Positions 1,286 through 55,500 of a DNA stretch of 64,000 nt are shown here, piece by piece. The notes beneath the pieces were generated by a model. It made no database searches and had not been told where the DNA came from. It saw only the letters and a program-made list of their open reading frames with translations. Numbering within the stretch: position 1 is the stretch's first letter; each line of letters opens with the position of its first letter. The translations under genes were made by a program, and so were the position numbers. The DNA comes from a virus. The stretch lies in the IMG/VR virus record IMGVR_UViG_3300021961_000053, positions 1-64,000 of that record. One strand, 5' to 3'.

Positions 1286-1293
1286 ACCCCTAT

Positions 1294-1365
1294 GGGGGTG
1301 TAGCTTAATGGTTAGAGCGACCTGCTTATAACGGGTTAGTCTGGGTTCAAGTCCCAGCATCCCTA
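1294..1365 (+). tRNA. tRNA-Ile(UAU)
   Basis: Cloverleaf; anticodon arm ACCTG-CTTATAA-CGGGT; TTCAAG T-loop. Confidence 0.85.
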
Positions 1366-1368
1366 TTC

Positions 1369-1441
1369 GCTCCTTTAGCAATCTGGTGAATGCAGCGAAC
1401 TCATAATTCGCCTGAGGCGTGTTCAATCCACGCAAGGAGCA
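1369..1441 (+). tRNA. tRNA-Met(CAU), elongator type (Ile2 not excluded)
   Basis: GCTCCTT/AAGGAGC acceptor; GCGAA-CTCATAA-TTCGC; paired 1:72 so not initiator. Confidence 0.85.
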
Positions 1442-1446
1442 CCTAA

Positions 1447-1537
1447 GGAAGTGTGGCAGAGCGGTTTAATGCTGGGGATTGCTAATCCCTTGATACATGC
1501 TATAATGTATCCGTTGGTTCGAATCCAACCACTTCCG
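1447..1537 (+). tRNA. tRNA-Ser(GCU)
   Basis: Anticodon loop TTGCTAA, long variable arm, G discriminator. Confidence 0.92.
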
Positions 1538-1543
1538 CCTCAT

Positions 1544-1618
1544 TCCGAGATAGCCAAGCGGTAAGGCAGCGGGTTTTGGTCCCGCCATTCCTAGGTTCGA
1601 TTCCTAGTCTCGGAACCA
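1544..1618 (+). tRNA. tRNA-Gln(UUG)
   Basis: GCGGG-TTTTGGT-CCCGC; encoded CCA. Confidence 0.9.
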
Positions 1619-1621
1619 GTT

Positions 1622-1695
1622 ACTCTCTTAGCTCAGTGGATTAGAGCATCTGACTACGGATCAGAGGGTCGTAGGTTCAAGTCCTACAGAGAGTG
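1622..1695 (+). tRNA. tRNA-Arg(ACG)
   Basis: TCTGA-CTACGGA-TCAGA; full cloverleaf. Confidence 0.92.
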
Positions 1696-1698
1696 TCT

Positions 1699-1770
1699 GG
1701 GTTATTAACTCAGCGGTAGAGTATTCGGCTTTTAACCGATTAGTCGTTGGTTCAAATCCAACATAACCCA
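1699..1770 (+). tRNA. tRNA-Lys(UUU)
   Basis: Loop CTTTTAA; GGGTTAT/ATAACCC acceptor. Confidence 0.92.
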
Positions 1771-1774
1771 CCTT

Positions 1775-1846
1775 GGGAGATTAGCTCAGTGGTAGAGCAA
1801 CGTGCTGATAACGCGGAGGTCGCTAGTTCGAATCTAGCATTTCCCA
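1775..1846 (+). tRNA. tRNA-Ile(GAU)
   Basis: Loop CTGATAA; full cloverleaf. Confidence 0.92.
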
Positions 1847-1850
1847 CCTC

Positions 1851-1925
1851 GGTCTCATCGTCTAGTGGTTAGGACAACACTCTTTCACAGTGTAGACACG
1901 GGTTCAAGTCCCGTTGAGACTACCA
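1851..1925 (+). tRNA. tRNA-Glu(UUC)
   Basis: ACACT-CTTTCAC-AGTGT; encoded CCA. Confidence 0.92.
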
Positions 1926-1927
1926 AA

Positions 1928-2012
1928 GGGAGCATGGTGGAATCGGTAGACACACCAGACTTAAAATCTGTTGGGCATTACGCCCGTGGGAGTTCAAGTC
2001 TCCCTGCTCCTA
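1928..2012 (+). tRNA. tRNA-Leu(UAA)
   Basis: Loop CTTAAAA, long variable arm, no intron. Confidence 0.92.
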
Positions 2013-2047: not shown

Positions 2048-2332
2048 GTGATGGCAGTTTTTAGATACACCATAACTAGGAAACATGTCTTCGTTGACAA
2101 TGAACCAGTTCTGATGTATTTTATTGAGAACATACCATTTGCATTTGATGTTTTAGAAGAGAACGAGAAACACGATAAGTGGATCTTGTCAGAAGCAGCA
2201 CTCAATCTAGAATACACTCTTGAAGATATCTTCAGGTATTCTGATTATTTGATTGCTGAAGAATGCCACCCTGTATTGTTTGAATTAGATTTAGTTAATC
2301 CAGAAGTTTTACCTGATGAACCAGTTTCTTGA
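2048..2332 (+). CDS. Hypothetical acidic protein (94 aa) upstream of cpeT
   Basis: ORF after late-promoter-like TTAAATA (2019-2025); overlaps cpeT start. Confidence 0.7.
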   Translation: MMAVFRYTITRKHVFVDNEPVLMYFIENIPFAFDVLEENEKHDKWILSEAALNLEYTLEDIFRYSDYLIAEECHPVLFELDLVNPEVLPDEPVS

Positions 2333-2855
2333 TCTATTAGAGGGCACCTTTGCTAACAAACGTCAGGCACAAGGACACCCTACTCGTTATGCACATATTC
2401 GGGTTCAACATCGGAAAATTTCCGATTGTCGCTTTTATGGCGAACAAGCATACAACTATCTTCTAAATAGACCATATCGCCAGTTCGTAATTGAAGTGGT
2501 AGATGAGGGTAATGAAGTAGATGGAAACATTTACCGTCTCAAAAACTATGAGATTGAAGACTCTCTAAGGTTTGCGGAATGCAAAAATCTAGAACTTATC
2601 ACTGATGAGATCTTGACATACCGCAAGGGGTGTGATATTATTATGAGGCAAGTCGGTCCAGCAGCATTCAAGGGTGGCACCTCCACCTGCGAGTGCTGGG
2701 TTGATTGGCAAGGCACGAAGACCTACGTTCAAAACGAGGTTCTGCTCACAGAGACAGATTACCAAGTGGTTGATCGTGGTCTTCATGCCGAAACCCATGC
2801 TAAAGTATGGGGGTCCGACTGGGGAGCGTTCAAGTTCGTCAGAATGGGGATGTAG
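2316..2855 (+). CDS. cpeT: CpeT/CpcT-family (T-type) phycobilin lyase
   Basis: Motifs G.F.N..QA..HP..YAHI, YGEQAY....PYRQ, GCD, DRG.......VWGS..G.F.F characteristic of T-type lyases. Confidence 0.9.
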   Translation: MNQFLDLLEGTFANKRQAQGHPTRYAHIRVQHRKISDCRFYGEQAYNYLLNRPYRQFVIEVVDEGNEVDGNIYRLKNYEIEDSLRFAECKNLELITDEILTYRKGCDIIMRQVGPAAFKGGTSTCECWVDWQGTKTYVQNEVLLTETDYQVVDRGLHAETHAKVWGSDWGAFKFVRMGM

Positions 2856-2918
2856 CTCAGTGGTTAGAGCACTAGCCTGTCACGCTAGTGGTCGTGGGTT
2901 CAAGTCCCATCATCCTCG
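2846..2918 (+). tRNA. tRNA-Asp(GUC)
   Basis: CTAGC-CTGTCAC-GCTAG; first 10 nt overlap cpeT 3' end. Confidence 0.92.
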
Positions 2919-2919
2919 T

Positions 2920-2961
2920 GGGTGGTTCGCGCTGGAAAGATAAACCAGAATGCCGCTACCC
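2920..2961 (+). ncRNA. Small structured inter-tRNA element
   Basis: GGGTGG/CTACCC closing stem enclosing CTGG-N9-CCAG hairpin. Confidence 0.35.
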
Positions 2962-2966
2962 TTCAT

Positions 2967-3038
2967 GCCATTTTAGCTCAGTGGTAGAGCAACCGCCTTG
3001 TAAGCGGTAGGTCGTCAGTTCGAATCTGACATGTGGCT
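2967..3038 (+). tRNA. tRNA-Thr(UGU)
   Basis: ACCGC-CTTGTAA-GCGGT; one acceptor mismatch. Confidence 0.9.
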
Positions 3039-3140
3039 TTGGTAGTCGCTAGGCACATAGCCTAGAAAGACGCCAACCTTCCGTTAGGGTTGGAAATGTC
3101 CGAATCTAATGGTCGTAGGGAAGTCCTCTAACACTTCCCA
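3039..3140 (+). ncRNA. Three consecutive hairpins between tRNAs
   Basis: TTGG..GTC.CTAGGC/GCCTAG..GAC.CCAA; CCGTTAGG..TTGGA/TCCGA..TCTAATGG; GGGAAGT/ACTTCCC. Confidence 0.4.
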
Positions 3141-3141
3141 T

Positions 3142-3216
3142 TTCCTCTGGTAGTCTATTGATAAGGACACCCCGACAAGGGAGTTGGAAACTGGGTTTGA
3201 TTCCCAGACAGAGGAA
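3142..3216 (+). ncRNA. tRNA-like RNA with non-canonical anticodon arm
   Basis: TTCCTCTG/CAGAGGAA acceptor, U8A9, GTCT/GGAC D-stem, CTGGG-TTTGATT-CCCAG T-arm; anticodon arm only CCC-GACAA-GGG. Confidence 0.6.
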
Positions 3217-3270
3217 GATAGAGGGCAAGCCTCTGTTATATCCTTGAGGTATATTACGCTTGTCCCATCT
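3216..3270 (+). ncRNA. Long bulged hairpin RNA element
   Basis: AGAT..GGGCAAGC/GCTTGTCC.ATCT with inner GTTATATCC-TTGA-GGTATATTAC. Confidence 0.4.
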
Positions 3271-3344
3271 GGGGAATTAGCTCAGTCTGGTAGAGCGCCT
3301 GCTTTGCAAGCAGGATGTCAGCGGTTCGAGTCCGCTATTCTCCA
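3271..3344 (+). tRNA. tRNA-Ala(UGC)
   Basis: CCTGC-TTTGCAA-GCAGG; G3:U70 pair. Confidence 0.93.
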
Positions 3345-3350
3345 CCTTAT

Positions 3351-3422
3351 TCCACAATAGCTCAGCGGTAGAGCCATCGACTGTTAATCGATTGGTCCCT
3401 GGTTCGAATCCAGGTTGTGGAG
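3351..3422 (+). tRNA. tRNA-Asn(GUU)
   Basis: ATCGA-CTGTTAA-TCGAT. Confidence 0.93.
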
Positions 3423-3437
3423 TTTTTAGAGGTTAAT

Positions 3438-3595: not shown

Positions 3596-6500
3596 ATGCC
3601 ATTAACACGTCTGGATAACCTTATCAGCTCCAAAACTGGTAAGTATCTTTATGTTTCTCCTGATGACTTTAACGCCACAGATTCGTTATCAAACAGAGGT
3701 AATTCACCAGTTACCCCATTTAAGAGCATCCAACGTGCGTTCTTAGAAATCGCAAGATATTCATATACCCCTGGTCCATCTAACGATAGATTTGACCAGT
3801 TCAGCATCATGCTGATGCCTGGTATTCACTATATTGATAACCGTCCTGGTCTTGTAGATACCAGTGGTATTGATGTATTTGATTTCAACCAAGCTCTGAA
3901 TGCTTGGGGCGATGATCCTATCCTTGATATCTCAAATCCAGATAACATCCTTTACAGGTTCAACAACACTGAAGGTGGTGCTATTATCCCTAGAGGTTCT
4001 TCTCTTGTAGGTTATGACCTCAGAAGAACTACTGTTCGTCCTCTATACGTTCCTGATCCTGCATCTGTAACTGTTCCACGTTCTGCAATCTTTAACGTAA
4101 CTGGTGGTTGCTACTTCTGGCAATTCACTCTAAAGGATGGACAGACCACTGCTGAATCCCCTCTCTACAACCCTGCAGCAGGCACTGGTGAAGTATACTA
4201 TGATCCTAATGATTTCACTAGAAAAACTGCTCCTAACTTCTCTCACCACAAACTAACTGTATTTGAATATGCTGATAAGGAAGAGCTGCAACTCTTCTAC
4301 AGAAAGATTGCTAAGGCATTCTCTGCATATCAACCAACCATTGATGATGTATCACCAGAAGGTATTCCTGAGTTTGATTACAACGTTCAGGAAAATAGAA
4401 TCGTTGGTCCTCTATCTGACTCTCGTGTTATTGAGTCACTTAAATTCACGGATGCGACAACAAATCCTGCAATTCCATCATCAACCACTGAGATTGAAGT
4501 AACAACTAAGGTTGATCACGGTTACTTTGCTGGTCAGTTTGTTGCTATTTCTGGAACTGAAATTGATGATGAGATCGAAGGATTCTGGGGAATTTATGAC
4601 ATCTCTGATGATCCTCGTAAATTTACCTATCGTGTTCCTTTTGTTGTATCTGGAATCGGTCAAGGTCTATCGTCTGGAATTACCGTTAGTGTAGATACCA
4701 CTCCTGCATTAGGTCAGAACGCACAAGTTCTTGCGGAAGTTGATTCTGTTGAGTCTGCGTCACCATACGTTTTCAACGTTTCAATTCGTTCTGTCTGGGG
4801 TATTTGTGGTATCTGGGCAAATGGTTTGAAAGCCACTGGATTCAAATCCATGGTTATCGCTCAATACACGGGTGTTTCGCTTCAGAGAGACGATAGAGCA
4901 TTCATTCGCTACGACGAATACGCAAACACTTGGAACCAAGCATCACTAGTTGATGCATTTGCTAGTGTTCCTTACCACGCTAAGGGCGATTCCTACTGGA
5001 AGGATGACTGGAGAAACTTCCACGTTCGTGCTTCCGATGACGCATTCATCCAGAACGTTTCTATCTTCGCGGTTGGTTTCGCTGATCACTTCCTGATGGA
5101 GTCGGGTGGTGACATGTCGATCACCAACTCTAACTCAAACTTCGGTAATACCTCACTACACGCTATTGGTTTCAAAGGATTCTCCTTCAACCAAGATAAG
5201 GCAGGTTATATTACCGATATCATTCCTCCTCAGCAAGTTGTTGAGAGTGAGACAAATAGAAAGAGAGTTCTATACTATACTATTGACGTTCAGGGAACCA
5301 TCCAGGATGGAGCAAATCGCACCAAACTATATCTTGGTGGAACAGATCTAGACAATCCACTAGATCGTCCTGCTGCTACTATTGGTGGATATAGAATTGG
5401 TGGCAAGTCTGGTGATAAACTTTATGTAAAACTGGACAAAAAGAATAACATTGATACTTTCCAAACAACATTAAGTCCAACTGGTTTTGTTAAGTATATT
5501 GCTAAGGGTTCTATTCTCAATCCAAGTAACTATACTATTAATAATGTAAATGTTGACGCTGCTAATCTAATCGAAAGCAACCGTCGCATGATTCAGGAGG
5601 AAGTCTTCGGTTATATTCTAGAGAAGTATCCAAGACTCCAGAACATTTCATATGTCAATCCATCACTTAACCCTGCTGCTGGTCGTTACCTTGATGCCAA
5701 GAATCTAATCATTGCTAACCGTCAAGAGATTGTTGATACAGCTTTTGACGAGATGGTTGAGGCATTTGGTATTGGTAACATTCAAGGTGTTGCCGATGGT
5801 AAGTGCAAGCGTGACATTGGTTTCATCGTTGATGCTATCGCAGAAGACCTCAGAGATGGTGGTAATGCTAACATCATTGCTGCAACTAGAGAGTATTTTG
5901 ATGGCAATGGAGATGCAATTTCAAACGGTCTTGTTGGAGAAGAAGTTCCATCTGTATTTGCATTTAACAGAGCAAGAGATCTCTGCAAGAAAGCAATTGC
6001 TAACCTACTAACAGTTAAAGCATCTATCTACGATCCAGAGACTGATAACCTACTATCTCCTTATGGAGTTATCTCTGGAAGCACTGGATCTGCTGCTCTA
6101 GGACTAGACAGTGAAGGTGTAACTGTAGATAAGGCAAACAGACAAGATCCTGCTGGTCGTTATAAGGATGCTCGCAACAGAATTATTGCCAACCGTGACT
6201 TTATTCTTGACGCAGCACTAGCAGAAGTTGCTGTCTATCATGACGATTTCTACTTCCCAGGAACTGCACAGACTACTGCTAAGTCTCGTTTCTACGATGG
6301 ATTCAGAATGATCCGTCGCAACAACAAAGAGATTGCTGATAGAGCCCTTGCTAAGATTGCATTTGAGCATCCTGATTTCTACTTCCCAGGAGATGCTCAG
6401 ACCACTGCTGATTCAAGATTCTATGATTCATATCGTCTGATTCAGCAAAACAAAGATGAGATTCAAGACCGTGCATTAGCACAGATTGCAATCAACCATC

Positions 6501-9500
6501 CAGATTTCTACATTCCTGGTAGTGCTCAGACAACAACACAATCAAGATTCTTTGATTCATATCGTTTGATTCAACAGAACAGAACTGACATCATCAATAC
6601 AGCATGGAACAACATGGTTGCTGTATATCCTGGTGTTGTTGGTACTGAGACCAAGTGTAAGCGTGACCTAGGATACTTTGTTGATGCTATCTCCCTTGAC
6701 ATCTTCATGGGTGGTAACAAGTATGCCCGTAAGTTTGTCTCCATGTACTTTGCTAGTGGAGCACCTATTGGTAATGGTCTAGTTGGTGAAGAGGCAGAGA
6801 GCATCCGTGCATTCCAAGAGGCAAGAGACCTCATGGGTCAGGCAGTTGCTAACCAACTAGCAGTTAAGGATCTTTCACTGACTGCAGATCCTGCTACTGG
6901 TTCTAACATTGATCCTAACTCCTGCGCTAACGTTCAGTCTGCAATTGATTCTCTTACGCTCATCGTAACTGATGTAATTGCTGCTGGTTCTCTTGCTGGT
7001 ATGGCTGCAGAAACTCCTTACTCTATTGAGGCAGGTGAGCTCAAGTGCCGTAGAGACCTTGGATTCTTCATTGATGCTGTATCCCTTGACCTCTTTATTC
7101 GTGGCAATGAGTATTCATACAGATTTGCTGCTGAATACTTTGATGTCAATGGTGCTGCAATCAGCAATGGTCTAGTTGGTGAGACTGCAGAAAGCATCAC
7201 TGCTTTCAACAAAGCAAGAGACATGATGAAACTTGCTATCACCAATTCTCTATATGAGAAGGATCTAACTCTAACAGCAGATCCTGCAACTGGTGATAAC
7301 CAAGATCAAGCATCCTGTGCTAACGTTCAGTCAGCACTTGACACTCTGACAAGCATTGTCACAACCATCGTTGCTGCTGGTAACCTATCATCTCTACCTG
7401 TTGAAATCAACAAGGGTTCTGCTCCTGCAGGTATGGAGAAGTGTGGTCGTGACATTGGATACTTCATTGATGCAATTGCTGTTGATCTCTTCACTGGTGG
7501 TAACAAGCACACCAGAACCTTCATTCAGCAATACTTTGATGGTAACACACCTATTAGCAATGGTTTAGCGGGTGAAGAAGCTGAGAGCATCACTGCTTTC
7601 AACGAAGCTTCTGCATACATGCAGCTGGCAGTTACAAACGAACTATACTACAGAGATTTAACTGTTACTGCTGATCCTCTAACTGGAGACAACCAAGATC
7701 CTAATTCCTGTGCTAACGTTCGCTCTGCTATCTCAACGCTAACAACATACGTTACCGATGCTCTGACTGCAGGCAACCTCAACACTCTACCAACTGAGAA
7801 TGCTGGATCATTCCAGACTGGAGAACTCAAGTGCCGTAGAGACCTAGGATATGTTGTTGATGCTGTAGCACAAGACCTCTGGTTTGGTGGTAACGAATAC
7901 ACCATCGCAGCAACTAAGGAATACTTCAATGGTAACTCATTGATTGCTAACGGTGTTGATAACGAGATCGCACCTTCAATCACAGCATTCAAGAGAGCTG
8001 CAGATCTAATGAATCGTGCAGTCAATAACCAATACTACTACCGTGATCTTGGTCTAACCCTAGATCAAACTGGTGATCCAGCATTCGTTGCTGACATTCA
8101 TGCTGATGCATACAACCTTGTTCTTGATAACAAGGAGTTCATTGCTGCTGAGGCATATGAGCGTATGCTTGCTGCTTACCCATCATACCAACCATCTGCT
8201 GGTAACACCAAGCAGGATTGCCTAGATGACGTTTATGACGTTCTAGAAGAGGTAATGTGGGATGTCAAGTTTGGTGGCAACTCTAAGACCTATGATGCTG
8301 CAGAAATCTATGTAACTAACATCTTCAATGGTCAGCCTATTGATACTTTCCTAGATGCTGAGCGTGATGAAGCTGCTAAGGTATTCCTTGAGGCAAAGAA
8401 CATTGCTATCCAGTGCCTCAGAAATGAGACTGTAAGCGTATCTGCTGGCAATACTCTAACTCAAGTCAAAGACCTAACAATCGTCAATGATTGGGATGAT
8501 GACTTTGCTCCACTACCTCAGTGTGGTTCTGCTGCTGGTGCTGTAGATACTCTGTTTGGTATCATTCTACAGGCAGTAGGTAATGATGGTGGTGTTGGTA
8601 ACCTCAATGGAGTTACAAGAACTGCTCCTTCCCAACCATCAACCTATACATTAGGTAATTGCTCTGACGTTCTAGCAACAATTGATACTCTCATCGGTAT
8701 CGTTTGTGATGCTCTCTATGCTGGTAGCCTTGATACACTACCACCTCTAAGCAATGGTGAGTGGGATTGTGCTAACGTTCGTTCTTCAATTGAAAACCTC
8801 TTCGACATCATCACAGATGCCATTTCTAGCGGTTCTCTTGCTGGACTACCAGTTCTTAACCGTGGAGACTTCATCGTTAATGCAGAGTCTTCTAAGTGCT
8901 TCAGAGACGTTGCTTACATCGTTGATGCTATTGTTAATGACCTCAAGTACGGTGGTAACATCAACAGCGTACAGGCAGGTGAAGCATACTATGTTGGTAC
9001 TCAACTAGATTACATCGATGGCGAGAAAGCGGAAACAATTGATGCTTGGAACTACGTCGGTCAAATGGCAATCGCAGCAATGCGTAACTTTGACTTCCTT
9101 GCATATAACTGTGCCACAACCAATTCTTCTGCTCTTGTAACTATTCCTGATGCTGCTGGAACTGGAACCAGAGATGTTCCTGCTTCTGCAATCATTAATG
9201 TTGGAGACAACAGCGGTATTATCATCGGTATGAAGGTTGAGGAGTATCCATCTGGTTCTTACACCAATGGATTACTAAATGCTGGAGCTACACCAGTTAC
9301 CACAAACATTCCAGAAGGAACATATGTTAAGAGCTTGATCGGATCTGATAGCATTGAGTTGGGAACTTATGGTTCTCGCCTTGATAGTGGTGTAAATCAA
9401 AATTGTCAGCAACCACCAAGTTCAACCGTTTCCCTTTACTTCACCTACGAACAGGGTGCATGGGCGAACACAACACCTAAGACGGTTGTTGTTGGACCAG

Positions 9501-12500
9501 AAGCATCCGATCCAGATGTTATTCAGGACACTACAACTTCACCTTCCCAGCGTGAGTGTGCTTCAACTGCTGCTGCTATTCTTCAGCTCACAGAGAACAT
9601 CACCACTATTATTAACACTGGTCTAACCAAAGTTGTTAATGGTGTCACGGTTCCTACTGTAGATCGTGTAGAACCAACGTTCAACACTGCTCTACTTGCA
9701 TCTAGAGCAACTGTATTCACAATTGATACAACTGGTTACGGTTCAACAGATGCTCATGACTTTGAGACTGGAACTCCTGTTAGACTTGTTCCACGTCCTC
9801 GTTTTAACCCAGCAACTGGACAATATGTTGATGTAGATAAGCGTGTTATTAGACTGCCTAATGGATTTGATACTAATACCACTTACTATGTGATTGCTCC
9901 TGGTAGAGCAACACAACCAGTAGATTACAGCGGATCAACTCTCTTTGATGAGACCGCAGTTACTAGATTGATGCTTGCGACTTCTAAAGAGAACGCAGCT
10001 GCTGGTATCTACATCTACGCATCTGAAACAGAATCTATTGATCCAGATATTGAGATCGATCTCTATCAGTTTGTACTTGATGACAAGTATGATCTTCACA
10101 CCTATTCTTGTGGACTAGTCAATACTGTTGTTGGTGGCATTGAAACAGATATTGCTCACATTTTTGATATACCTTCTACCGCAACAACTCCTCAGAAAGT
10201 ATTCTTTAGAGCAATTGAAGGAAGTGATCTTCCAGATCTTGCTACAAATTATGCTTCAGATCCAACCGTTGCAATCACAAGTGGTGTCAATGCTGGTAAG
10301 ATTAACCCAAGTGTTGAATTTTATGTTCGTTATCAGACCAGCAAGGTCTTCACAATTCATAAGACTCTTGCTGATGCCTTAAACGATGTAAATCCAATCA
10401 CTTTCAACAACGCTAACGGTCCATTCAGAGTATTTGCTAACAAGAAGCGCAGCCCAATGCGCTTTGATCCAGGATTTAATGGTTCTGATACCGACAACGG
10501 TAAGTGGTACTTACAGTGTCTGGATAGAGAAACTGAAGGAAACGCAGTATTCTTTAATGAAATCTTCTACAGAATCAATGAGTCTGATTATCAGAGTAAG
10601 CCTACTACAACTGATACGTGGTATGAGCGTGTTGATGACACCAGAGATGCTAATGAGAGAACCTATAAACTCCGTTATGTCATTCCTAAGTACATTGAGA
10701 ACGCAAGAGATCCTATCAATGGATTTGTTATTAAGACAAGAACTGACGATACTCGTAAGTTAGTTCCTCAGAAACTACTACTCAAGCCTGTTGCTGGTAA
10801 CGTTTATGGTGCTCGATTTGAGAACCCACAACAACCAGGAGAATTCATTGGATTTACCAAAGAACAATTTGCTGCAGATGACACCCTAAATGATCTTAAT
10901 GCATATGATCCATTTAGAAGACCTCTAACTGGAGAAGATCAAGACACAGATTACCGTGCAATTGCAAGATTCACCTCTGGAGTCGCTGCTACAATTCAAT
11001 CTGGTCGTTATGTTGAGGATGATTTAGATGCATCTATTAAATATCTAGAACTGACTGTATTTGATCATAGTATCGATACTAAGAACTTCCCTGGACTAAG
11101 AAATGAGATCCTAACAACCGTCAAGATCTCTGCTCCTCAGGGTGGTGGTTTCATTGCAAATAAGACACAAAGTATTGTTGGTAACTCCGTCTCATTTGCT
11201 GGTAACTCTTCAGGTACTGCTTACATTCACGGATACTTTAATGTTGGTGGTGATCACTACCTAATCATCAAGGGTATCAGTGGTGCCAAGGGAACTGCTT
11301 CGCTAGAGTATAGCGAGTTCCAAGGCACAAGATTCACTCAGGGTGCTGTCTTTGCTGATATGCTGGATGACCAGGATATGGGCAAATCGCTACCTCTGAA
11401 GACCCATATCAGAAAAAATTTCCCAGAGTATTTTTACAAGCAAAACGGCGCTAACGTTTATACTATCACTCCTGGTGATCGTATTCAAGACGACGCTGGT
11501 ATTGAATACTATGTTTATAGTGTAGAAGATGCTGGTGTCATTGAAGATACTTTCTATATCTTCGATAGCGAAGAACTACAGAAGCGTATTCCAGGTCAGC
11601 AAGATGGTATCTACTATCTAACAGCTCTCCGTGGTAATATCTCTCCATATCCAACTGGTGCTGGTGCTGGTGGAAACTTCCGTAAGTTCAAGTTCTCTCA
11701 ACCAGTTGGTAAGATCTATCCTCTAAACTATAGAAACGATCCTCTCTGGTTCCAGAAGTCTGGTACAACCAACGAAGAGAAGAACTACTATTCACAGTTG
11801 ATTGATCCACCTCAGGCATTCTCTGCTGCTGATAACTATATCCACGGTAAAGTCACTGTCAACGATACCAAGAACTCTGTAACCAAGGAACTTGTTATCG
11901 ATCTTCTCAAGCAACCTGCGTTTGTCGAGAACACCTATACTAGTGATAATGAGATTCAGGCACAATTAGGTAATGCAACTTCTGGATCAGAAGATCGCCG
12001 CATTCCTATTGCTGGTGATAGCACAGTTCTTGCCGATCAGCGTTACTACGTTGAACTCCGCAGACCATCTATTGCCCGTGCTGGTAACCACACGTTTGAA
12101 TACCTAGGTTTCGGTCCTGGTAACTACTCAACAGGTCTTCCTGCCCGTCAGGAGATCGTTCTAGAACCAGAACAAGACTTCTACGCACAAGCTAAGAAGC
12201 AAGATGCTGGTATCGTATTCTACACTGGTATCAACTCTCAGGGTGACCTCTACATTGGTAACAGAAGAATCAACGCTATCACTGGTGAAGAAGACTTCAT
12301 CGATAGAGCAGTTCTTGCCGATGATGGAGATGCTGATGACGTTATCGGACAACTCGTTACTACATTCGACACACCTGTAACGTTCAACCAGAACATTACA
12401 ATCGTTGGTGGTCCAGATGGCGAACTTGTTAATAATATCAACTCTCCAATTCTGATTAATGTCCCAGACAATCAGTTAAGTAATCTTGGAGCACCTCTTG

Positions 12501-39922: not shown

Positions 39923-40093
39923 ATGACACTAACTGAACGCAACCAAAAGTTATATGAACTGCGTGATCAGTTGTTGAAAGCACGAGCACAAGTTGCCTGG
40001 ATTGAACAACAGATCTGGTTGACTCGTGATGCATACGATCAAGAACAATTTGCCATCCCTGGTAATAGTCTTTTTGATCAAATGTTCAACTAG
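39923..40093 (+). CDS. Small coiled-coil protein (56 aa)
   Basis: Manually translated. Confidence 0.55.
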   Translation: MTLTERNQKLYELRDQLLKARAQVAWIEQQIWLTRDAYDQEQFAIPGNSLFDQMFN

Positions 40094-40122
40094 ATAATAT
40101 AACCAACACCCAAGGAGTTCTC

Positions 40123-40257
40123 ATGACTGTGCAGGAAATGTATCAAGAGATGAAAGAACAAATGCTGGAGGATTCGCTCCTAGGGTATAGAGATCATCAC
40201 CTCTACGATGATGCTGAGAGCTATATTGTAGAAATCGACTACACTACACAGAACTAG
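40123..40257 (+). CDS. Small acidic protein (44 aa)
   Basis: AAGGAG SD; manually translated. Confidence 0.55.
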   Translation: MTVQEMYQEMKEQMLEDSLLGYRDHHLYDDAESYIVEIDYTTQN

Positions 40258-40259
40258 TG

Positions 40260-40317
40260 TGACAGTTGGCAAGGTGTCCCCAATTGACCCCAGATGCCCC
40301 GACCCTGTGCCTATAAT
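40260..40317 (+). promoter_or_regulatory. Palindrome + -10 early-type promoter module
   Basis: TGACA-N10-TGTCC, 32 nt, TATAAT. Confidence 0.75.
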
Positions 40318-40323
40318 GTCTGC

Positions 40324-40521
40324 ATGACAAACAACCTCACCGCTTCCATGGTCCATCAGTTCGATCTCGACATCGCTCCCGCCTTGCGTGAGTACATGGG
40401 TTCTAATCTCACTGACCTCAGCGACTGCATCGATTGGGTGTGCGCTGTGTTCGATGTGCCCGCTAGCGAGTGGATCTGCGATCGTATCGCTGACGAGTTC
40501 GAAGAGTTCTTCGGGGTGTGA
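40324..40521 (+). CDS. Hypothetical early protein (65 aa; likely leaderless)
   Basis: ATG 6 nt after -10 box; its TGA stop is part of the next palindrome. Confidence 0.65.
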   Translation: MTNNLTASMVHQFDLDIAPALREYMGSNLTDLSDCIDWVCAVFDVPASEWICDRIADEFEEFFGV

Positions 40522-40575
40522 CAGTTGGGGGAGTGTCCATCATTCTCCCCATTGCCCCCCATCTGCTGCCATACT
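40519..40575 (+). promoter_or_regulatory. Palindrome + -10 early-type promoter module
   Basis: TGACA-N10-TGTCC, 31 nt, CATACT. Confidence 0.7.
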
Positions 40576-40604
40576 AACCTCAGTTCAAACAACCAACGCC
40601 AAAC

Positions 40605-40964
40605 ATGCGTAAGATCGAACGCCAAATGCTCAACGCCATTGCTGTTAACAGCAACTGGAAATGTGCTAACACTGAAGTGTGCTACGATCCCGAAACTAAC
40701 GAGAGCACTGTGTATCTGCACGGTAACAAGATTGCAGAGGTAGGTGATAACTACCTGCGCCTCTTTGATGGTGGTTGGCAATCTAACACCACCAAATCTC
40801 GCATCAATGCTATCATGCAAGAATGCAGCATTGCAGGCGAAGGTGTATTCCAGAAGAACTATCAGTGGTTCATTCGCCTCTTCAATGGCACTGAATTCTT
40901 CGTCACTGAGTTTCGCTCTGGCATGAAACTTGGTGCTCTGCCTTACTCTCTGCTGCTCGCCTGA
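40605..40964 (+). CDS. Conserved-type phage early protein (119 aa)
   Basis: MRKIERQM..AI...VYLHGNKIA...DGGWQSNTTKSRINA. Confidence 0.75.
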   Translation: MRKIERQMLNAIAVNSNWKCANTEVCYDPETNESTVYLHGNKIAEVGDNYLRLFDGGWQSNTTKSRINAIMQECSIAGEGVFQKNYQWFIRLFNGTEFFVTEFRSGMKLGALPYSLLLA

Positions 40965-40974
40965 GTTACAGAAT

Positions 40975-40995
40975 AGGGGAGACAATCTCCCCTTC
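40975..40995 (+). terminator. Hairpin after early gene
   Basis: AGGGGAGA-caa-TCTCCCCT. Confidence 0.5.
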
Positions 40996-41105
40996 TCAAT
41001 AGACTTTCTAATTGAGAATCGCGGCTGCCCCTAGTACAACTGAACTCATGGCATCATCAGCATCCCCCATCCTAGGCGTCTGGTATGATCCGACCGCCAA
41101 GCGCA

Positions 41106-41163
41106 GTACAGTTGAGAATGTGGCACAGTGGGTTGCCGTTGCTGCTGCCCTGGGATCTATACT
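41106..41163 (+). promoter_or_regulatory. Palindrome + -10 early-type promoter module
   Basis: GTACA-N10-TGGCA, 32 nt, TATACT. Confidence 0.7.
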
Positions 41164-41187
41164 GATCTCAGTTCAAACGAAACGCAA

Positions 41188-41403
41188 GTGACCCACGCCA
41201 TCGCAGTTCAACCGACCGCCTGGACTTCCTTCGATCAGCATGGTTGCGAGTGGGCAACCGACATGCGCCATGCCTACCGCATCGCCCAACAATGGGGCGA
41301 GCCCTGCATGGTCTGGATGTGCCCCGTGCATGGTGCCCCGATGAAGTGGTGTCGTGCCACTGAGATCACAGACGCCATCGCTGACCTAGTGTTCGGTGCC
41401 TGA
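41188..41403 (+). CDS. Hypothetical early protein (71 aa; GTG start)
   Basis: First ORF after promoter. Confidence 0.6.
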   Translation: MTHAIAVQPTAWTSFDQHGCEWATDMRHAYRIAQQWGEPCMVWMCPVHGAPMKWCRATEITDAIADLVFGA

Positions 41404-41447
41404 AGTGGCACAAGGGGGACTGAGATCCCCTGCCCACCCTCTATACT
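41391..41447 (+). promoter_or_regulatory. Palindrome (degenerate left half) + -10 module
   Basis: AAG-TGGCACA right half, 31 nt, TATACT. Confidence 0.65.
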
Positions 41448-41453
41448 AACAGC

Positions 41454-41663
41454 ATGAACAGCACCGAACTCAAGACCCTGAACTTCACCCTCTCCCTGCA
41501 GGATCGCTGCATCGCCATCGCTGAGGCGCTCGCCATGGAAATCAACGGTGACCTCTCCTACGTGCCAGAGGAGGATGCCGAGCGTATCATGGCACGTCTG
41601 ACCCCAGACAACATACAGGAGACGGCAGAGGAACTGGCACAACTTGCCTACTGGTTCAACTGA
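41454..41663 (+). CDS. Hypothetical early protein (69 aa; likely leaderless)
   Basis: ATG 6 nt after -10 box. Confidence 0.7.
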   Translation: MNSTELKTLNFTLSLQDRCIAIAEALAMEINGDLSYVPEEDAERIMARLTPDNIQETAEELAQLAYWFN

Positions 41664-41677
41664 TCACCCCTTAGACT
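41620..41677 (+). promoter_or_regulatory. Palindrome + -10 early-type promoter module
   Basis: AGACG-N10-TGGCA, 32 nt, TAGACT. Confidence 0.6.
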
Positions 41678-41698
41678 GATTCCATCGAAACGAACCCC

Positions 41699-41866
41699 AT
41701 GATCTACGTTGTGACCGCTGGCGACTTCTACGAATCCGATGATGTCTGCTGCCTGTTCGCCCATGAGGCAGACGCCCATGCCTATGCTGCCCAACTCGAA
41801 GGCGAATACGATTGGGCAGAGGTCACTCCCCAAACCGTCCACCAAGGTCCGCTGGTCGCCGCCTGA
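41699..41866 (+). CDS. Small acidic early protein (55 aa)
   Basis: Manually translated. Confidence 0.6.
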   Translation: MIYVVTAGDFYESDDVCCLFAHEADAHAYAAQLEGEYDWAEVTPQTVHQGPLVAA

Positions 41867-41877
41867 CCCCTTATACT
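41821..41877 (+). promoter_or_regulatory. Palindrome + -10 early-type promoter module
   Basis: GGTCA-N10-CGTCC, 31 nt, TATACT. Confidence 0.6.
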
Positions 41878-41883
41878 AAGAGC

Positions 41884-42054
41884 ATGAACAAACAACCCGA
41901 CCTCGCCGCCATCATGGCATCCTACACTGCACAGTACAACCAGATGCAGGCACGATCCGCTGCCAACCGTCAGGCATTCGCTGAGGGTCGCCCCTTCCCC
42001 TTCCCTGCCCCTGAGTGCCAGTCGGGCAACTGGAACATCAGCGACCGCGACTGA
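41884..42054 (+). CDS. Small early protein (56 aa; likely leaderless)
   Basis: ATG 6 nt after -10 box. Confidence 0.6.
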   Translation: MNKQPDLAAIMASYTAQYNQMQARSAANRQAFAEGRPFPFPAPECQSGNWNISDRD

Positions 42055-42073
42055 TCGCCTGACCCTCTAGAAT
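42016..42073 (+). promoter_or_regulatory. Palindrome + -10 early-type promoter module
   Basis: TGCCA-N10-TGGAA, 32 nt, TAGAAT. Confidence 0.65.
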
Positions 42074-42100
42074 TCTCTCATACCAAACAACCCAAACGAC

Positions 42101-42373
42101 ATGACCGCTTCCACCCTCCCCACGTACAACGGTTGGGCAACCTACGAGACCTGGAATGCTGCCCTCTGGATTGGCAACGATCAATTCCTCTACAACACCG
42201 CTAAGGCGTGTGTCGAGTTCTGCTCTGATGACGAGACCCCCTGGGATAAGTTCGTCCGCTGCATGACTGACGGGCAGATCGGTCGCCATCTTGTGCAGAC
42301 CCGTGATGGGGTGCGCTGGGATAGCGTCGCCATCGATGCAGACGAGATGAACGCCATGATGGTCGATCTCTGA
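42101..42373 (+). CDS. Conserved-type phage early protein (90 aa)
   Basis: YNGW.TYETWN.ALWI.ND..LY motif. Confidence 0.75.
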   Translation: MTASTLPTYNGWATYETWNAALWIGNDQFLYNTAKACVEFCSDDETPWDKFVRCMTDGQIGRHLVQTRDGVRWDSVAIDADEMNAMMVDL

Positions 42374-42418
42374 ACCGCACACTACGGGGGTCTCTGCTGC
42401 CCCCCTTGCCTATAGACT
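42361..42418 (+). promoter_or_regulatory. Degenerate palindrome + -10 module
   Basis: GGTCG-N10-CGCAC, 32 nt, TAGACT; in register with the other copies. Confidence 0.45.
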
Positions 42419-42446
42419 AACCACAGTTCAACCGACAGACAGACCG

Positions 42447-42632
42447 ATGATCATGAGCATGGCAACCGACCTCCAGACCCGCCGCATCGTGTGGGCAGGT
42501 CGCAAGACAGAGACCGCTCATCAGACCATGGGGCAAGATCTCCCCATCACCGTAGAGAGCGAGTGGATCGCGGGTGCCTACGCTGACCGCTGGCATGATG
42601 AGGCAATCGCCAAGATCCCCACGTTCGGGTGA
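42447..42632 (+). CDS. Hypothetical early protein (61 aa)
   Basis: First ORF after promoter. Confidence 0.6.
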   Translation: MIMSMATDLQTRRIVWAGRKTETAHQTMGQDLPITVESEWIAGAYADRWHDEAIAKIPTFG

Positions 42633-42671
42633 GGGGTCGCCCCCCATCCTACCACACACCCATTCTCTACT

Positions 42672-42872
42672 ATGAACATCAGAAAGTATCAGCGATCAGT
42701 GGATGAAATCATGAACCGCTACGGTTTCATCTTTGAGAGCAAGTCTAAGCACATGAAATACAAGCACACGAAACTAGGCATCATTCAGGTATGCTCTGCG
42801 ACGCCATCTGATAACTATGCTCTCTCGCAGATTGAGCGCCAATGTAGACGCTCACTCGCAGCAGCACAGTGA
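42672..42872 (+). CDS. HicA-like (dsRBD-fold) protein
   Basis: YGF.......KHMKYKH......V.S.TPSD pattern; 66 aa, basic. Confidence 0.55.
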   Translation: MNIRKYQRSVDEIMNRYGFIFESKSKHMKYKHTKLGIIQVCSATPSDNYALSQIERQCRRSLAAAQ

Positions 42873-42876
42873 TACT

Positions 42877-42902
42877 GGGGGGCAGTTAATTTGCCCCCCT
42901 TT
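42877..42902 (+). terminator. Rho-independent terminator ending the early block
   Basis: GGGGGGCA-gttaatt-TGCCCCCC-TTT. Confidence 0.75.
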
Positions 42903-43022
42903 GTTATACTTAGGGGCGCCAAGCGAAATGTTTGGGTCCCTCCTAACCTACAAAAGTATCCAGACGACCGATAAATATTTCTGAAAACCTTGAAAATAAA
43001 AAAATTTGCCCAGAAAAAAATT

Positions 43023-43274
43023 ATGGAAAAACCCGCGTTTGAAAACTTCACAGGTATTCTAGAGAACTTTGATGCATTCTGCGACGAGTTTGAATCACGC
43101 GCCGCAGAGGCATTCATGAGAGGAGATCAAAATAATGGAAACATCGTCAGAGCAGCCACAGAAAAACTTGGAGGAGAAACTCCTACTGTTGTTACAGAGA
43201 TTAGAGAGTCTGGAGCTGAGGGTGTCTCAGTTGGAGAGACCGACGATTGCGTACAGACGCCCACAGGGGAATAA
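43023..43274 (+). CDS. Hypothetical protein (83 aa; start refined)
   Basis: After late-promoter-like ATAAATA (42971-42977). Confidence 0.65.
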   Translation: MEKPAFENFTGILENFDAFCDEFESRAAEAFMRGDQNNGNIVRAATEKLGGETPTVVTEIRESGAEGVSVGETDDCVQTPTGE

Positions 43275-43365
43275 TTACGAAACATTGTCAGACACTCTGG
43301 ACTACCTTCACAATAATGTAGAAGGTATTAAGAAAGATTTGCTAAAAGTCGCCCAAGCAGTATAA
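43135..43365 (+). CDS. Coiled-coil hypothetical protein (76 aa)
   Basis: AGGAG SD; TAATG coupling with the next gene. Confidence 0.7.
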   Translation: METSSEQPQKNLEEKLLLLLQRLESLELRVSQLERPTIAYRRPQGNNYETLSDTLDYLHNNVEGIKKDLLKVAQAV

Positions 43366-43817
43366 TGCCAAACATCGTAGGACCAGATTGTGTAGATACT
43401 TTAAGTACAGATGCACTATGTCTGTATCCCGCAAAGGCACTAGGAGGGGACCCTACAAAGAGTCCTAATGTAAAGATCAACGGCGAATCGGTAGAATACT
43501 ATAAATCTACGAGTATTCCAGACCCCACCGATCCAGAACCACTCCCATCAAATGTGATTCCCCTCCCATGCCAACCAGGAGATCGAAGGATTCAACCAAC
43601 AATTAACACGACAGTGTATATCAATGGTAATCTTTTCGCAGTACAGGGAGATGAAGCACAGTTGGTGGTGGGAGGCACTCCAAGACCCCTCGTTGGTCCG
43701 TTCAAGTATCCCACAGTCAAAATACAGGAAGGAGGTGCTGGAGGGTCATCTGGAGGCAGCTCAGGGGGTGATGAAGCATTCCCACCAGATGATGGGGGTG
43801 AATTCATTCTTTACTGA
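43365..43817 (+). CDS. PAAR-like spike-tip protein (gp5.4-like) with acidic Gly-rich tail
   Basis: SPNVKING, TVYING...AVQGD and PTVKI repeats; position upstream of gp25. Confidence 0.5.
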   Translation: MPNIVGPDCVDTLSTDALCLYPAKALGGDPTKSPNVKINGESVEYYKSTSIPDPTDPEPLPSNVIPLPCQPGDRRIQPTINTTVYINGNLFAVQGDEAQLVVGGTPRPLVGPFKYPTVKIQEGGAGGSSGGSSGGDEAFPPDDGGEFILY

Positions 43818-43855
43818 GTTTTATGGTATAATATACAAGTCAATCGAGTACATCT

Positions 43856-44002
43856 ATGGCAAAATCTAAAGTTGGTATCAGTGGTTTGAAGTTTGAGCCT
43901 GGTCCCCCTAAAAAGTCCCGTCAAGGTCGTTCAAAGAATACCAGTCTTAGTGCTACATCCCGCAATGGGCGTAAGAAGCGTTATCGTGGTCAGGGGAGTT
44001 AA
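43856..44002 (+). CDS. Small basic protein (48 aa, ...RKKRYRGQG)
   Basis: Manually translated; TGGTATAAT promoter upstream. Confidence 0.65.
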   Translation: MAKSKVGISGLKFEPGPPKKSRQGRSKNTSLSATSRNGRKKRYRGQGS

Positions 44003-52500: not shown

Positions 52501-55500
52501 CCATATCAGAAACTGACTGGCAGTACATTAACAGCTCTTACTCCATATGCTGGCGTTACTTTCTACGGTAGATATTTTAGTTTCAAAGATAGTCAATATA
52601 ATACAAGGTACTTTAAAAAGATTAGAAACATCTTCCAGAGAAATGGAAGATGGTTGGATGCTGCTAATCAAATTGAAAGAAACAGAAGTTTCATCGTAGA
52701 GGAATCTATTGGTTATGGAAGATCAAAGTATCCATCACTAGATTGGAGCACCAAGCAAGATGATTATGAGAGAGATCTGGGATATATTCTTGATGCGTAT
52801 CAACATGATATTAGATTTGGTGGTAATGTAAAGACTGTTGATTATGTTTCTTTCTTTAATCAAGATACTGATTATGATTATATCACAGACAACAAAGTTC
52901 AATCACTGAGCATATTTAAGTATGCCACCAACTTGGCAAAACTTTCCGTTAGAAATTGGGATGTTGTAGAAACTGGAGTATCTTATATTCAAGGATCTAA
53001 AGTAGTTATAGTACAAGATACTAATAATCTTGCTGTTGGTATGCATATTAGTTCTGGGAGATCATACGCTCCAGGAACAAAGATTGTTTCTATTGATAGT
53101 GCTACTCAAGTTACATTGTCACATGCTGCTCTTGCTAACTCTGGTGGTGGTGGTGGAGCTCCTGATGGAACTACCACATATAGTGGAACAAGCGGTGGTA
53201 ATGTTACTGCTCCTACAAATACTGTTGCTATTGAGCCAGGTGATACTTTTGCGGTTGAACCAGGAGATACTTTTATAGCTCCAGTATCATTCTCTGGATC
53301 AGATACGGCAACATTCTTCTTCAGCGGAATCAACAGTGGAACGTTCTATGATGCTGCCAATTTAATCTCATACAATAAAGAGTATCTACAAGAAGAAATC
53401 AGTGGATATATCTATGACAACTATACCCTATCCACAGATGTAAGCAAGTGCTATAGAGATCTTGGTTACCTAGTTGATGCTATCACATACCATTTAAAAT
53501 TTGGTGGAAATGAGAAGGTTGTAGAGTTTGCAAGACTTTACTATACAAATGCTGGATATCCATATGGAGAGGAACTAACCTATATTAATAGAACTGCAGA
53601 AGAAACTGCTGCTGCTATTGATGCATGGGAAAAACTTGGAGAGAAGATGATTCTTGCCATGAGGAATTCTCTTGGCGCTGGAGCATATACAGCAATTCTT
53701 CCAGTTACAGATACTTCAATTGCTGTTGATCCAGTTTCACCATATTGTTCCGAAGTGGCATCTGCTATCAACTCTTATGTTGATATAGTCAAGGATATTC
53801 TTGCAAACGGAACTGGTGCTGTAGATTCAGTTGGAATCAACGCTACCAAACCTGGATATTGGACTGATACAAAACCATCTATTGATTATAATCTAATCCC
53901 AGATCCTTCAAAACCAGGAACAGGTGAGTGTGATGATGTTGTCTCTGCAATTGATTCTCTTTATGATAATGTTGATGATGTCCTTGCAGAACTATTGGTT
54001 GCAAAAAATCTCCCAGATTATGTCGACGGAGAAAATAAAGTATTTGAGTTGTATTGGGATGATGATACAGAGGTTTCTACAGAAGAAGATGAAGATCTAT
54101 TCTTAATGATCAATGCTGTTCTTCAAAGACCTAAGTACAATGCAGAATACCCAGGTGGTGATGCATACTATATTGATAGAAACACGATTCCAAATAAACT
54201 AGTCTTTGATGTTGCTCCAATTTGGGACCAAGATTTTGGTGCTAAGAGCATTGGAGAACCAACTGCTGTGGAGAAAGTGGTCGGTATTGGTGTTGGTAAC
54301 TATAAGAGACTAACAATTGACTATAATCTTGTCAATGGAGTTAAGACTGGACCATTCCTAATCCTTGATGTTGAGGACAAAACAGTTCAGAGTGTTGAAG
54401 AGAAGGAATATCTGTATGTCTTCTTAGATGGTGTTTTACAAAGAGAAGGATATAGCTACATTGTTTCTGGTCCAAATATCTATTTCAATGTTCCTATTAA
54501 GAAGGAAATGAAGATTGATATGAGATATCTCTATGGTAGAGATGTCGGACAGATCCTAAACATTTATGATTTTGCTCCAGATACCTATTTTGCTACTGGT
54601 ACTTTTATTATAGAGTCTAGTTCATCATTGATTAATGATTATTTGAGCTATAGATGGATGGGAAATCTTTCTGGATTTGGAGTTCATTGTTGGCAACAAA
54701 GACCAGATGGAACTTACAACGTAATTGGAAAACTTACCAATCCATATAGAACTTCGTCTGAAATCAAGTTTGATGTTGTAAGATCTCAGAACGCAACTAT
54801 TATTCCTGGATTAGATATTGTATTTGCTGTTGAGGGCAGATATTCAAGAACATTCACTCTCCCAACATCAGAATTTACAAATGCAACTTTAACATTAGAA
54901 GTTGATGAATTTGGAAGAAAGATACTTTCAAGTGAAGATGCTTATTGGTATGGAACTTTCTTCAGAAGATTCCACAAAAATCCTTTCGTAAGCCTATCTA
55001 ATGGCGACAAGATCCGCGTAGAAGGAGAAGATAAATTCAGAAGTATTAAAGTTCTCCCGCAAAAAACCACATCAAAAGATGGCAGAGATGGAGAGCAACT
55101 ATCAGATGACATATATGGATCTGTTGAGGTAGAGACTTATAATGGTATTACTCGCGGAGAAGGTCTCAGTGTTGTTGCAACTATTGAAAATGGAAGTGTT
55201 GTTTCTCTATCTTGGAACCAACGCAGCTGGGATCCACTGACTCAACCAACAGCATATCAGTATTTTACACCACCTGTTCTTGAATTTGTTCCAGAAAATG
55301 GAGATGGCGGCGGCGCAAGAGCCGAAGTAATAGTAAGCAAAGGTCAGGTTATCAGTGTTGATCTTCTTGATGGTGGTTCTGGATACACCAAGGCACCGAA
55401 GGTTGTTGTTGCCAGAAGATATGAAATTCTTAATGAGAGAGACATTGGTGTATCACTAATTCGCGTGGGAATCAATCCATACGTTGAACATGCTGGAATG

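Follow-up and report, generated by a model that had tools for sequence, protein, structure and literature searches.

Why should a giant virion protein carry, many times over, sequence resembling that of the phycobiliproteins, and why should its gene lie beside a homologue of the T-type phycobiliprotein lyases? The question is raised by the virus record IMGVR_UViG_3300021961_000053 (83,215 bases; CheckV completeness estimate 43%), of which we analysed positions 1–64,000, here called the window. An earlier reading of the letters of this DNA (the original prediction) had placed phycobiliprotein-like domains with two bilin-attachment-like cysteines in a virion protein of 4480 residues. We find that these domains are modules nested within one another, that two of their helices are relatives, in sequence, of phycobiliprotein helices, and that modules of this kind are co-inherited with the lyase gene cpeT. 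Two problems that have stood since about 2005–2010 meet at this locus, namely why cpeT is the only gene of the host operon that most marine cyanophages carry, as posed in passages of PMC3037559, and what makes the adsorption of some cyanophages light-dependent independently of host photosynthesis, as posed in passages of PMC6628666. A family of bilin-site modules in the adsorption apparatus, inherited with cpeT, would turn both into one concrete and cheap test. The discovery of pigment would make this the first virus particle that senses light, which would have consequences for the daily infection rhythm of the ocean’s main primary producers; even without pigment, the depth of nesting would make an unusual fibre construction, and the modules would be one of few instances in which a virion has recruited an antenna protein of its host.

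Three motifs recur in the protein, and each of the 21 predicted sites (seven each of a, b and c) appears when the protein is printed at its coordinates (Table 1). A strict regular expression recovers six of the seven b sites and five of the seven in the case of both a and c, while iterated motif hidden Markov models (HMMs) recover seven of seven for every motif. The b copy at 8219 is divergent, reading D-C-L-D-D, with Asp in place of Arg.

Read along the protein, the HMM matches spell aabaaaabcbcbcbabcccbc, a string that parses under the grammar M → a M* b M* c, that is, whole modules are inserted between a parent’s a and b or ahead of its c. The anatomy of a module is then helix a, helix b (K-C-x-R-D...G-G-N), two more helices and the Cys-led helix c. 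The grammar was examined in 265 proteins, 99 of which have the same number of a, b and c motifs; 98 of these 99 parse, in 14 distinct architectures, the latter being the better measure because the proteins are related to each other. Counts in the other 166 are unequal, through fragments, missed motifs or a subfamily without detectable c, and are uninformative either way. One architecture has ten a, then seven bc pairs, two a and five bc pairs, another reads abababababccccc, and nesting reaches a depth of up to ten. Both other module-bearing open reading frames (ORFs) of the genome parse as well. Altogether 652 distinct modules were parsed, and the 158 that are uninterrupted have a median length of 156 residues. 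Shuffled strings parse in only 130 of 99,000 cases (0.13%), and the unit is found at E ≤ 1e-3 in 1203 representative proteins (1.84 billion searched), in up to 34 copies per protein; for these two reasons the recurrence of the motifs is far beyond chance. The alternative layout, seven tandem units composed of c or a, then b, helix 3 and helix 4, leaves four a helices orphaned and the runs of c unexplained, and it was dropped because nesting accounts for all 21 sites and for all but one of the equal-count homologues. We are therefore confident that the modules are nested and not tandem. Some giant proteins, such as P0122 (34 b, 12 a, 0 c), are rich in b and poor in a motifs, have no c that could be detected, and stand outside the three-motif grammar as the motifs were called here.

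The likeness to phycobiliproteins was examined with three profiles, A1 from the seven window units, A2 from 116 two-unit segments and A3 from 65 uninterrupted modules, the last two drawn from IMG/VR relatives. Against 177,635 PDB sequences, A1 yields 27 matches at E ≤ 10, all of them phycocyanin or phycoerythrin alpha chains, with a best E of 0.038. The best E values of A2 and A3 are 2.6e-5 and 6e-5, each for one stretch covering chain residues 37–104, and in both searches the 60 matches listed are without exception phycobiliproteins or their fluorescent protein derivatives. With A3, no phycobiliprotein was returned at E ≤ 10 from a database of 5.8 billion sequences. In Pfam, 72 of the 116 two-unit segments match PF00502 at E ≤ 1 (best 1.4e-7), compared with 9 of 116 for the next family, and the precomputed PF00502 label is present on most giant homologues. 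In the profile search against the phycobilisome family that the original prediction proposed as a check, single units stay below the cut-off. The phycocyanin-alpha stretch around Cys84 given in the original prediction is the same as in the PDB chains printed by HMMER but for one residue.

Profile–profile comparison gives the same placement. Loci of cpcA were fetched from cyanobacterial genomes by a degenerate pattern, and 71 distinct alpha and 57 beta-type sequences were extracted from them; the alpha alignment was thereby picked by the very motif under test, and the Pfam and PDB results are independent of that selection. In hhalign, A3 reaches 94.7% (P 5.7e-8) with the 71 cpcA sequences, 63.8% with beta and 94.6% with alpha and beta together, over 55–57 columns that set module columns 16/17–71/72 on phycocyanin-alpha columns 40–105, and the reversed A3 gives 0.04% and 0.26%. 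Modules and phycobiliprotein subunits (PF00502, with CpcA closest) have in common the register of helix B, loop and helix E, the K-C-x-R-D-[IL]-G-Y...G-G signature and the N...A...P of helix B, and they are alike in helix count over the span B–H and in approximate size. The N-terminal X-Y hairpin has no counterpart, in that neither PF00502 profile positions 1–29 nor chain residues 1–36 are matched and an uninterrupted module starts at helix a. Phycobiliproteins are free alpha–beta antenna subunits equipped with this hairpin, whereas the modules are nested parts of virion proteins of 2900–4500 residues, with a pigment that is only putative.

Helices a and b are, on these comparisons, sequence relatives of phycobiliprotein helices B and E, those of phycocyanin alpha being closest, and the match of both motifs in register and order stands as predicted. 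Homology of the a–b segment with phycobiliproteins is very likely in our judgement, and we infer common descent for the module as a whole. In view of the hhalign results and shuffle controls, the homology claim is good for the a–b segment; it is unproven elsewhere in the module, and the equation of c with beta-Cys153 is unsupported. The idea of phycobiliprotein-like domains survives for the a–b segment and is unsupported for c, and the domains lie inside one another instead of side by side. A cellular parallel is ApcE, the phycobilisome core-membrane linker, a large multidomain protein containing a phycobiliprotein-type domain that has a loop inserted between its helices B and E and needs no lyase to attach its bilin. 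The site of that loop insertion is the same as the a–b gap of the modules; the difference is that ApcE carries one such domain and serves a cellular antenna, whereas here whole modules are nested in a virion protein.

Residues of the bilin site are the ones most conserved. Across 1264 full units from 265 proteins, the K-C-x-R-D positions are K in 79%, C in 99%, R in 91% and D in 100%; their counterparts are Lys83-Cys84-x-Arg86-Asp87 on phycobiliprotein helix E, which we take to hold the bilin at Cys84. Six of the seven b copies in the window keep Lys, Cys, Arg and Asp together, the 8219 copy being the exception. A cysteine heads helix c in 652 of 652 parsed modules (the c model itself favours Cys), and 646 of the 652 have both the b and the c cysteine.

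Modules and cpeT travel together. The gene adjoining the giant ORF is a clear member of the CpcT/CpeT family (PF06206, E 8.5e-40, 132.2 bits against a cut-off of 21, model positions 2–181 of 181), so the phage lyase named in the original prediction is in place beside the giant gene. Among the 16 cyanomyovirus genomes of Sullivan et al. (2010), taken from the column headings of their Table 3, 13 have both modules and CpeT, three have neither (P-SSM2, S-SM2 and S-SSM7) and none has only one. In IMG/VR, 80 contigs carry a close relative of this CpeT, and 50 of them, those of at least 16.5 kb, were searched; 40 hold modules, in every case 2.4–5.6 kb downstream on the same strand, and the other 10 end at most 2.8 kb downstream of cpeT. 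Adjacency is not universal, as cpeT and the module gene are more than 35 kb apart in Syn9, P-SSM4 and P-HM2. The two are co-inherited. We also note a CpeT-family gene in Syn1 (NC_015288.1 19950–20462; PF06206 E 1.5e-35), for which Table 3 of PMC3037559 gives none, and another in P-SSM4 (NC_006884.2 16642–17064; PF06206 E 2.4e-10), for which the review PMC2984593 says none.

Passages of PMC3037559 describe as unresolved what the phage lyase does, and as a mystery what purpose the bilin synthesis genes of phages serve. T-type lyases serve the cysteine equivalent to beta-153, according to the part of a review that treats them (PMC10452541). The beta-153 cysteine precedes the last helix, and so does the cysteine of c, which resembles it only topologically, in following a long loop and opening the last helix. 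The accepted substrate of CpcT/CpeT, the family to which PhiCpeT belongs, is host phycoerythrin or phycocyanin beta, whereas a virion protein as substrate would be particular to the present proposal.

Within phages, the modules have a narrow distribution. When one unit was searched by tblastn against 50,697 phage records, 159 matched, and every one of these has a cyanophage-type name (Synechococcus 124, Cyanophage 26, Prochlorococcus 8, Marine 1); among the records searched, the modules are restricted to cyanophages. The module-flanking parts are matched by T4-like tail-fibre and baseplate proteins (PHROG 4527 and 529, cyanomyovirus gp7-like). In P-HM1 and P-HM2, modules reside in the annotated gp7 baseplate wedge protein (P-HM2 NC_015284.1 46318–59682) and in a second large frame near 82–84 kb, not within a fibre gene adjoining cpeT. 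Short stand-alone module proteins were considered and rejected: A3 found 56 of 91–291 residues, many of them from contigs no longer than about 1 kb, and the six inspected look like pieces of larger genes.

A further lead comes from adsorption. In passages of PMC6628666, P-HM1 and P-HM2 are reported not to adsorb in the dark, S-PM2 to adsorb in a light-dependent manner independent of photosynthesis, and P-SSM2 and P-SSP7 to adsorb in the dark. Modules are present in the first three and absent from the last two; P-HM1, P-HM2 and S-PM2 have cpeT as well, and P-SSM2 has neither. Mutations selected in a chemostat fall in S-PM2d088 (3338 residues) and S-PM2d218 (3779 residues), according to the relevant passage of PMC9910659, and by size and position these are the two module-bearing frames of S-PM2.

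We propose that an ancestral phage captured a host phycobiliprotein, which would have lost its N-terminal X-Y hairpin and given rise to the modules. The b cysteine may still take up a bilin covalently, and perhaps the c cysteine too; the co-inherited phage CpeT would then serve the c site, located where T-type lyases act, and at the b site attachment would fall to host lyases or be autocatalytic. The result would be a pigmented fibre whose absorption of light would gate adsorption. This overall picture, a covalently bilin-bearing fibre built of captured modules and controlling adsorption by light, is one that we hold tentatively, and we are similarly guarded about covalent bilin on the modules. 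Taken as a separate claim, light-gated adsorption through the modules seems to us rather unlikely. We regard as speculative, to about that degree, the broadest form of the idea, in which most T4-like cyanophage particles would bear bilins on nested fibre or baseplate modules, phage CpeT would be their dedicated lyase, and the modules would be the long-sought photoreceptor of light-dependent adsorption, making this a virion with a light sense of its own. No published description of such modules was found in the literature searched, which lacks most subscription journals.

Several results weigh against this proposal, and some of them would favour other explanations. To begin with homology, helix b alone (22 columns) gives 95.1% in hhalign, so most of the signal lies in 22 residues. 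The half of the module after G-G-N has no significant likeness to phycobiliproteins (0.3% and 1.1%), and the c-region model scores beta chains (mean −1.99, maximum 3.8) no better than shuffled beta chains (−2.48, 5.0), so that the predicted match of motif c with the Cys153 segment of phycocyanin beta is not supported. Only two of the seven single units match PF00502, at 14.3 and 12.6 bits (E 0.042 and 0.14; cut-off 22.2), the 42.2 bits (E 1e-10) of the 1355-residue region 5555–9620 being summed over these related repeats, and the whole 4480-residue protein has no match in Pfam. Such a pattern is what one would see if a short K-C-x-R-D-[IL]-G-Y...G-G helix had arisen by convergence or chance in a helical repeat of phages, with no common descent, all the more as helix a alone reaches a probability of just 1–7%. 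Yet helix a alone is placed on helix B at the correct spacing (P 0.054 with alpha, 0.0051 with alpha and beta), the helix count and approximate size fit the span from B to H, every listed PDB match is a phycobiliprotein or a derivative, the hosts make phycobiliproteins, and these phages are known capturers of host genes; convergence therefore appears improbable to us. More improbable still, in our estimate, is an intracellular role, in which the fibre protein, accumulating late in infection, would act as a sink or decoy that binds bilins, lyases or parts of the phycobilisome. It would explain the retained attachment motif and the co-occurrence with CpeT, and interference of phages with host antennae is known (PMC12695635), but three large virion-type proteins and the P-HM2 baseplate gp7 are a costly place for a soluble decoy, and adsorption is the role suggested by the mutations selected in the S-PM2d homologues (PMC9910659, in the passage concerned).

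The main rival to a pigmented fibre accepts descent from phycobiliproteins and dispenses with the pigment: the modules would be stiff helical beads by which the fibre is built or extended, their cysteines an intramodule disulfide or metal site once in oxic seawater, and Arg-Asp would be kept for packing. Two near-invariant cysteines per module are also the usual signature of a disulfide. Asp replaces the propionate-binding Arg, with the Cys retained, in 55 of 646 distinct modules with a C..D motif; the number of copies differs greatly between proteins, reaching 34 b motifs in one, as in structural repeats; and the C-terminal half of the module has drifted past recognition. No report of coloured or pigmented cyanophage particles was found in the literature searched, and neither bilin reductase nor haem oxygenase was found in the 43%-complete record. 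Phage bilin synthesis is not tied to modules either, since P-SSM2 and S-SSM7, both without modules, are among the four phages with pebS and ho1 in Table 3 of PMC3037559. The agreement of modules and CpeT may also count for less than its hand-computed exact test (1 in 560), which overstates it because the three genomes without both may be related, perhaps leaving one or two events. As for light, the adsorption comparison covers five phages, with P-GSP1 left out. What speaks against a purely structural bead is that the most conserved residues are exactly the bilin-holding ones while the rest of helix b has diverged, that modules and CpeT agree in 16 of 16 genomes, and that the modules are confined to cyanophages. 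In addition, the two bilin cysteines of phycobiliprotein beta chains are far apart. On balance we consider pigment-free modules a serious possibility, to be entertained as tentatively as the pigmented fibre.

The assignment of the 4480-residue protein to the virion, also part of the original prediction, is borne out by its tail-fibre type: it matches PHROG 4527 ‘short tail fiber’ (E 0, best stretch residues 1985–3794) and PHROG 529 ‘tail fiber’ (E 1.3e-290, residues 1–630), both outside the module array. Among isolates, Synechococcus phage S-RSM4 comes closest, with 77.6% nucleotide identity over 91% of the 5555–9620 region in its ‘putative short tail fibre’; it shows the same order of cepT, tRNAs, small ORF and giant fibre gene, with a similar tRNA cluster in the same place. 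Modules occur in three different large virion-type proteins of the genome. In the second of them the sites are a 52654, b 52771, a 53344, b 53446, c 53746 and c 53926 (span 52654–53985), and a weak PF00502 match lies at 52612–52743.

Table 1. Features of the locus, in window coordinates unless stated otherwise.
Feature	Position	Strand	Basis or remark
Giant tail-fibre or baseplate-type virion protein, 4480 residues	3596..17038	+	ORF list; PHROG 4527 and 529 matches
Module 1, outermost: a 5555, b 8897, c 9557; all others within its a–b gap	5555..9622	+	Motif parse
Module 2: a 5693, b 5804, c 8768; interrupted between fourth helix and c	5693..8833	+	Motif parse
Module 3: a 6167, b 7832, c 8660; both gaps interrupted, module 7 in b–c gap	6167..8725	+	Motif parse
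Module 4: a 6296, b 7442, c 7709	6296..7774	+	Motif parse
Module 5: a 6425, b 7046, c 7316	6425..7381	+	Motif parse
Module 6, innermost, uninterrupted: a 6554, b 6656, c 6923; first row of A3 alignment	6554..6988	+	Motif parse
Module 7, uninterrupted, divergent: a 8105, b 8219 (D-C-L-D-D), c 8522	8105..8587	+	Printed motifs
Motif a sites	5555, 5693, 6167, 6296, 6425, 6554, 8105	+	Protein printed at coordinates
Motif b sites, Cys codons	5804, 6656, 7046, 7442, 7832, 8219, 8897	+	Protein printed at coordinates
Motif c sites, Cys codons	6923, 7316, 7709, 8522, 8660, 8768, 9557	+	Protein printed at coordinates
cpeT, T-type phycobiliprotein lyase homologue, 179 residues, 0.7 kb upstream of giant gene	2316..2855	+	PF06206
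tRNA cluster Ile, Met, Ser, Gln, Arg, Lys, Ile, Glu, Leu	1293–2012		One side of cpeT
tRNA cluster Asp, Thr, Ala, Asn	2845–3423		Other side of cpeT; 13 tRNA genes in both clusters
Second giant virion ORF, 3505 residues, two modules, one nested before the other’s c helix	46531..57048	+	Motif string ababcc
Third large frame, 2913 residues, two side-by-side modules	Starts at record position 73302, beyond the window; sites 75645–76870		Motif string abcabc

Base composition is uneven along the window, with G+C of up to 0.51 at 40001–44000 and 0.34–0.46 in the rest.

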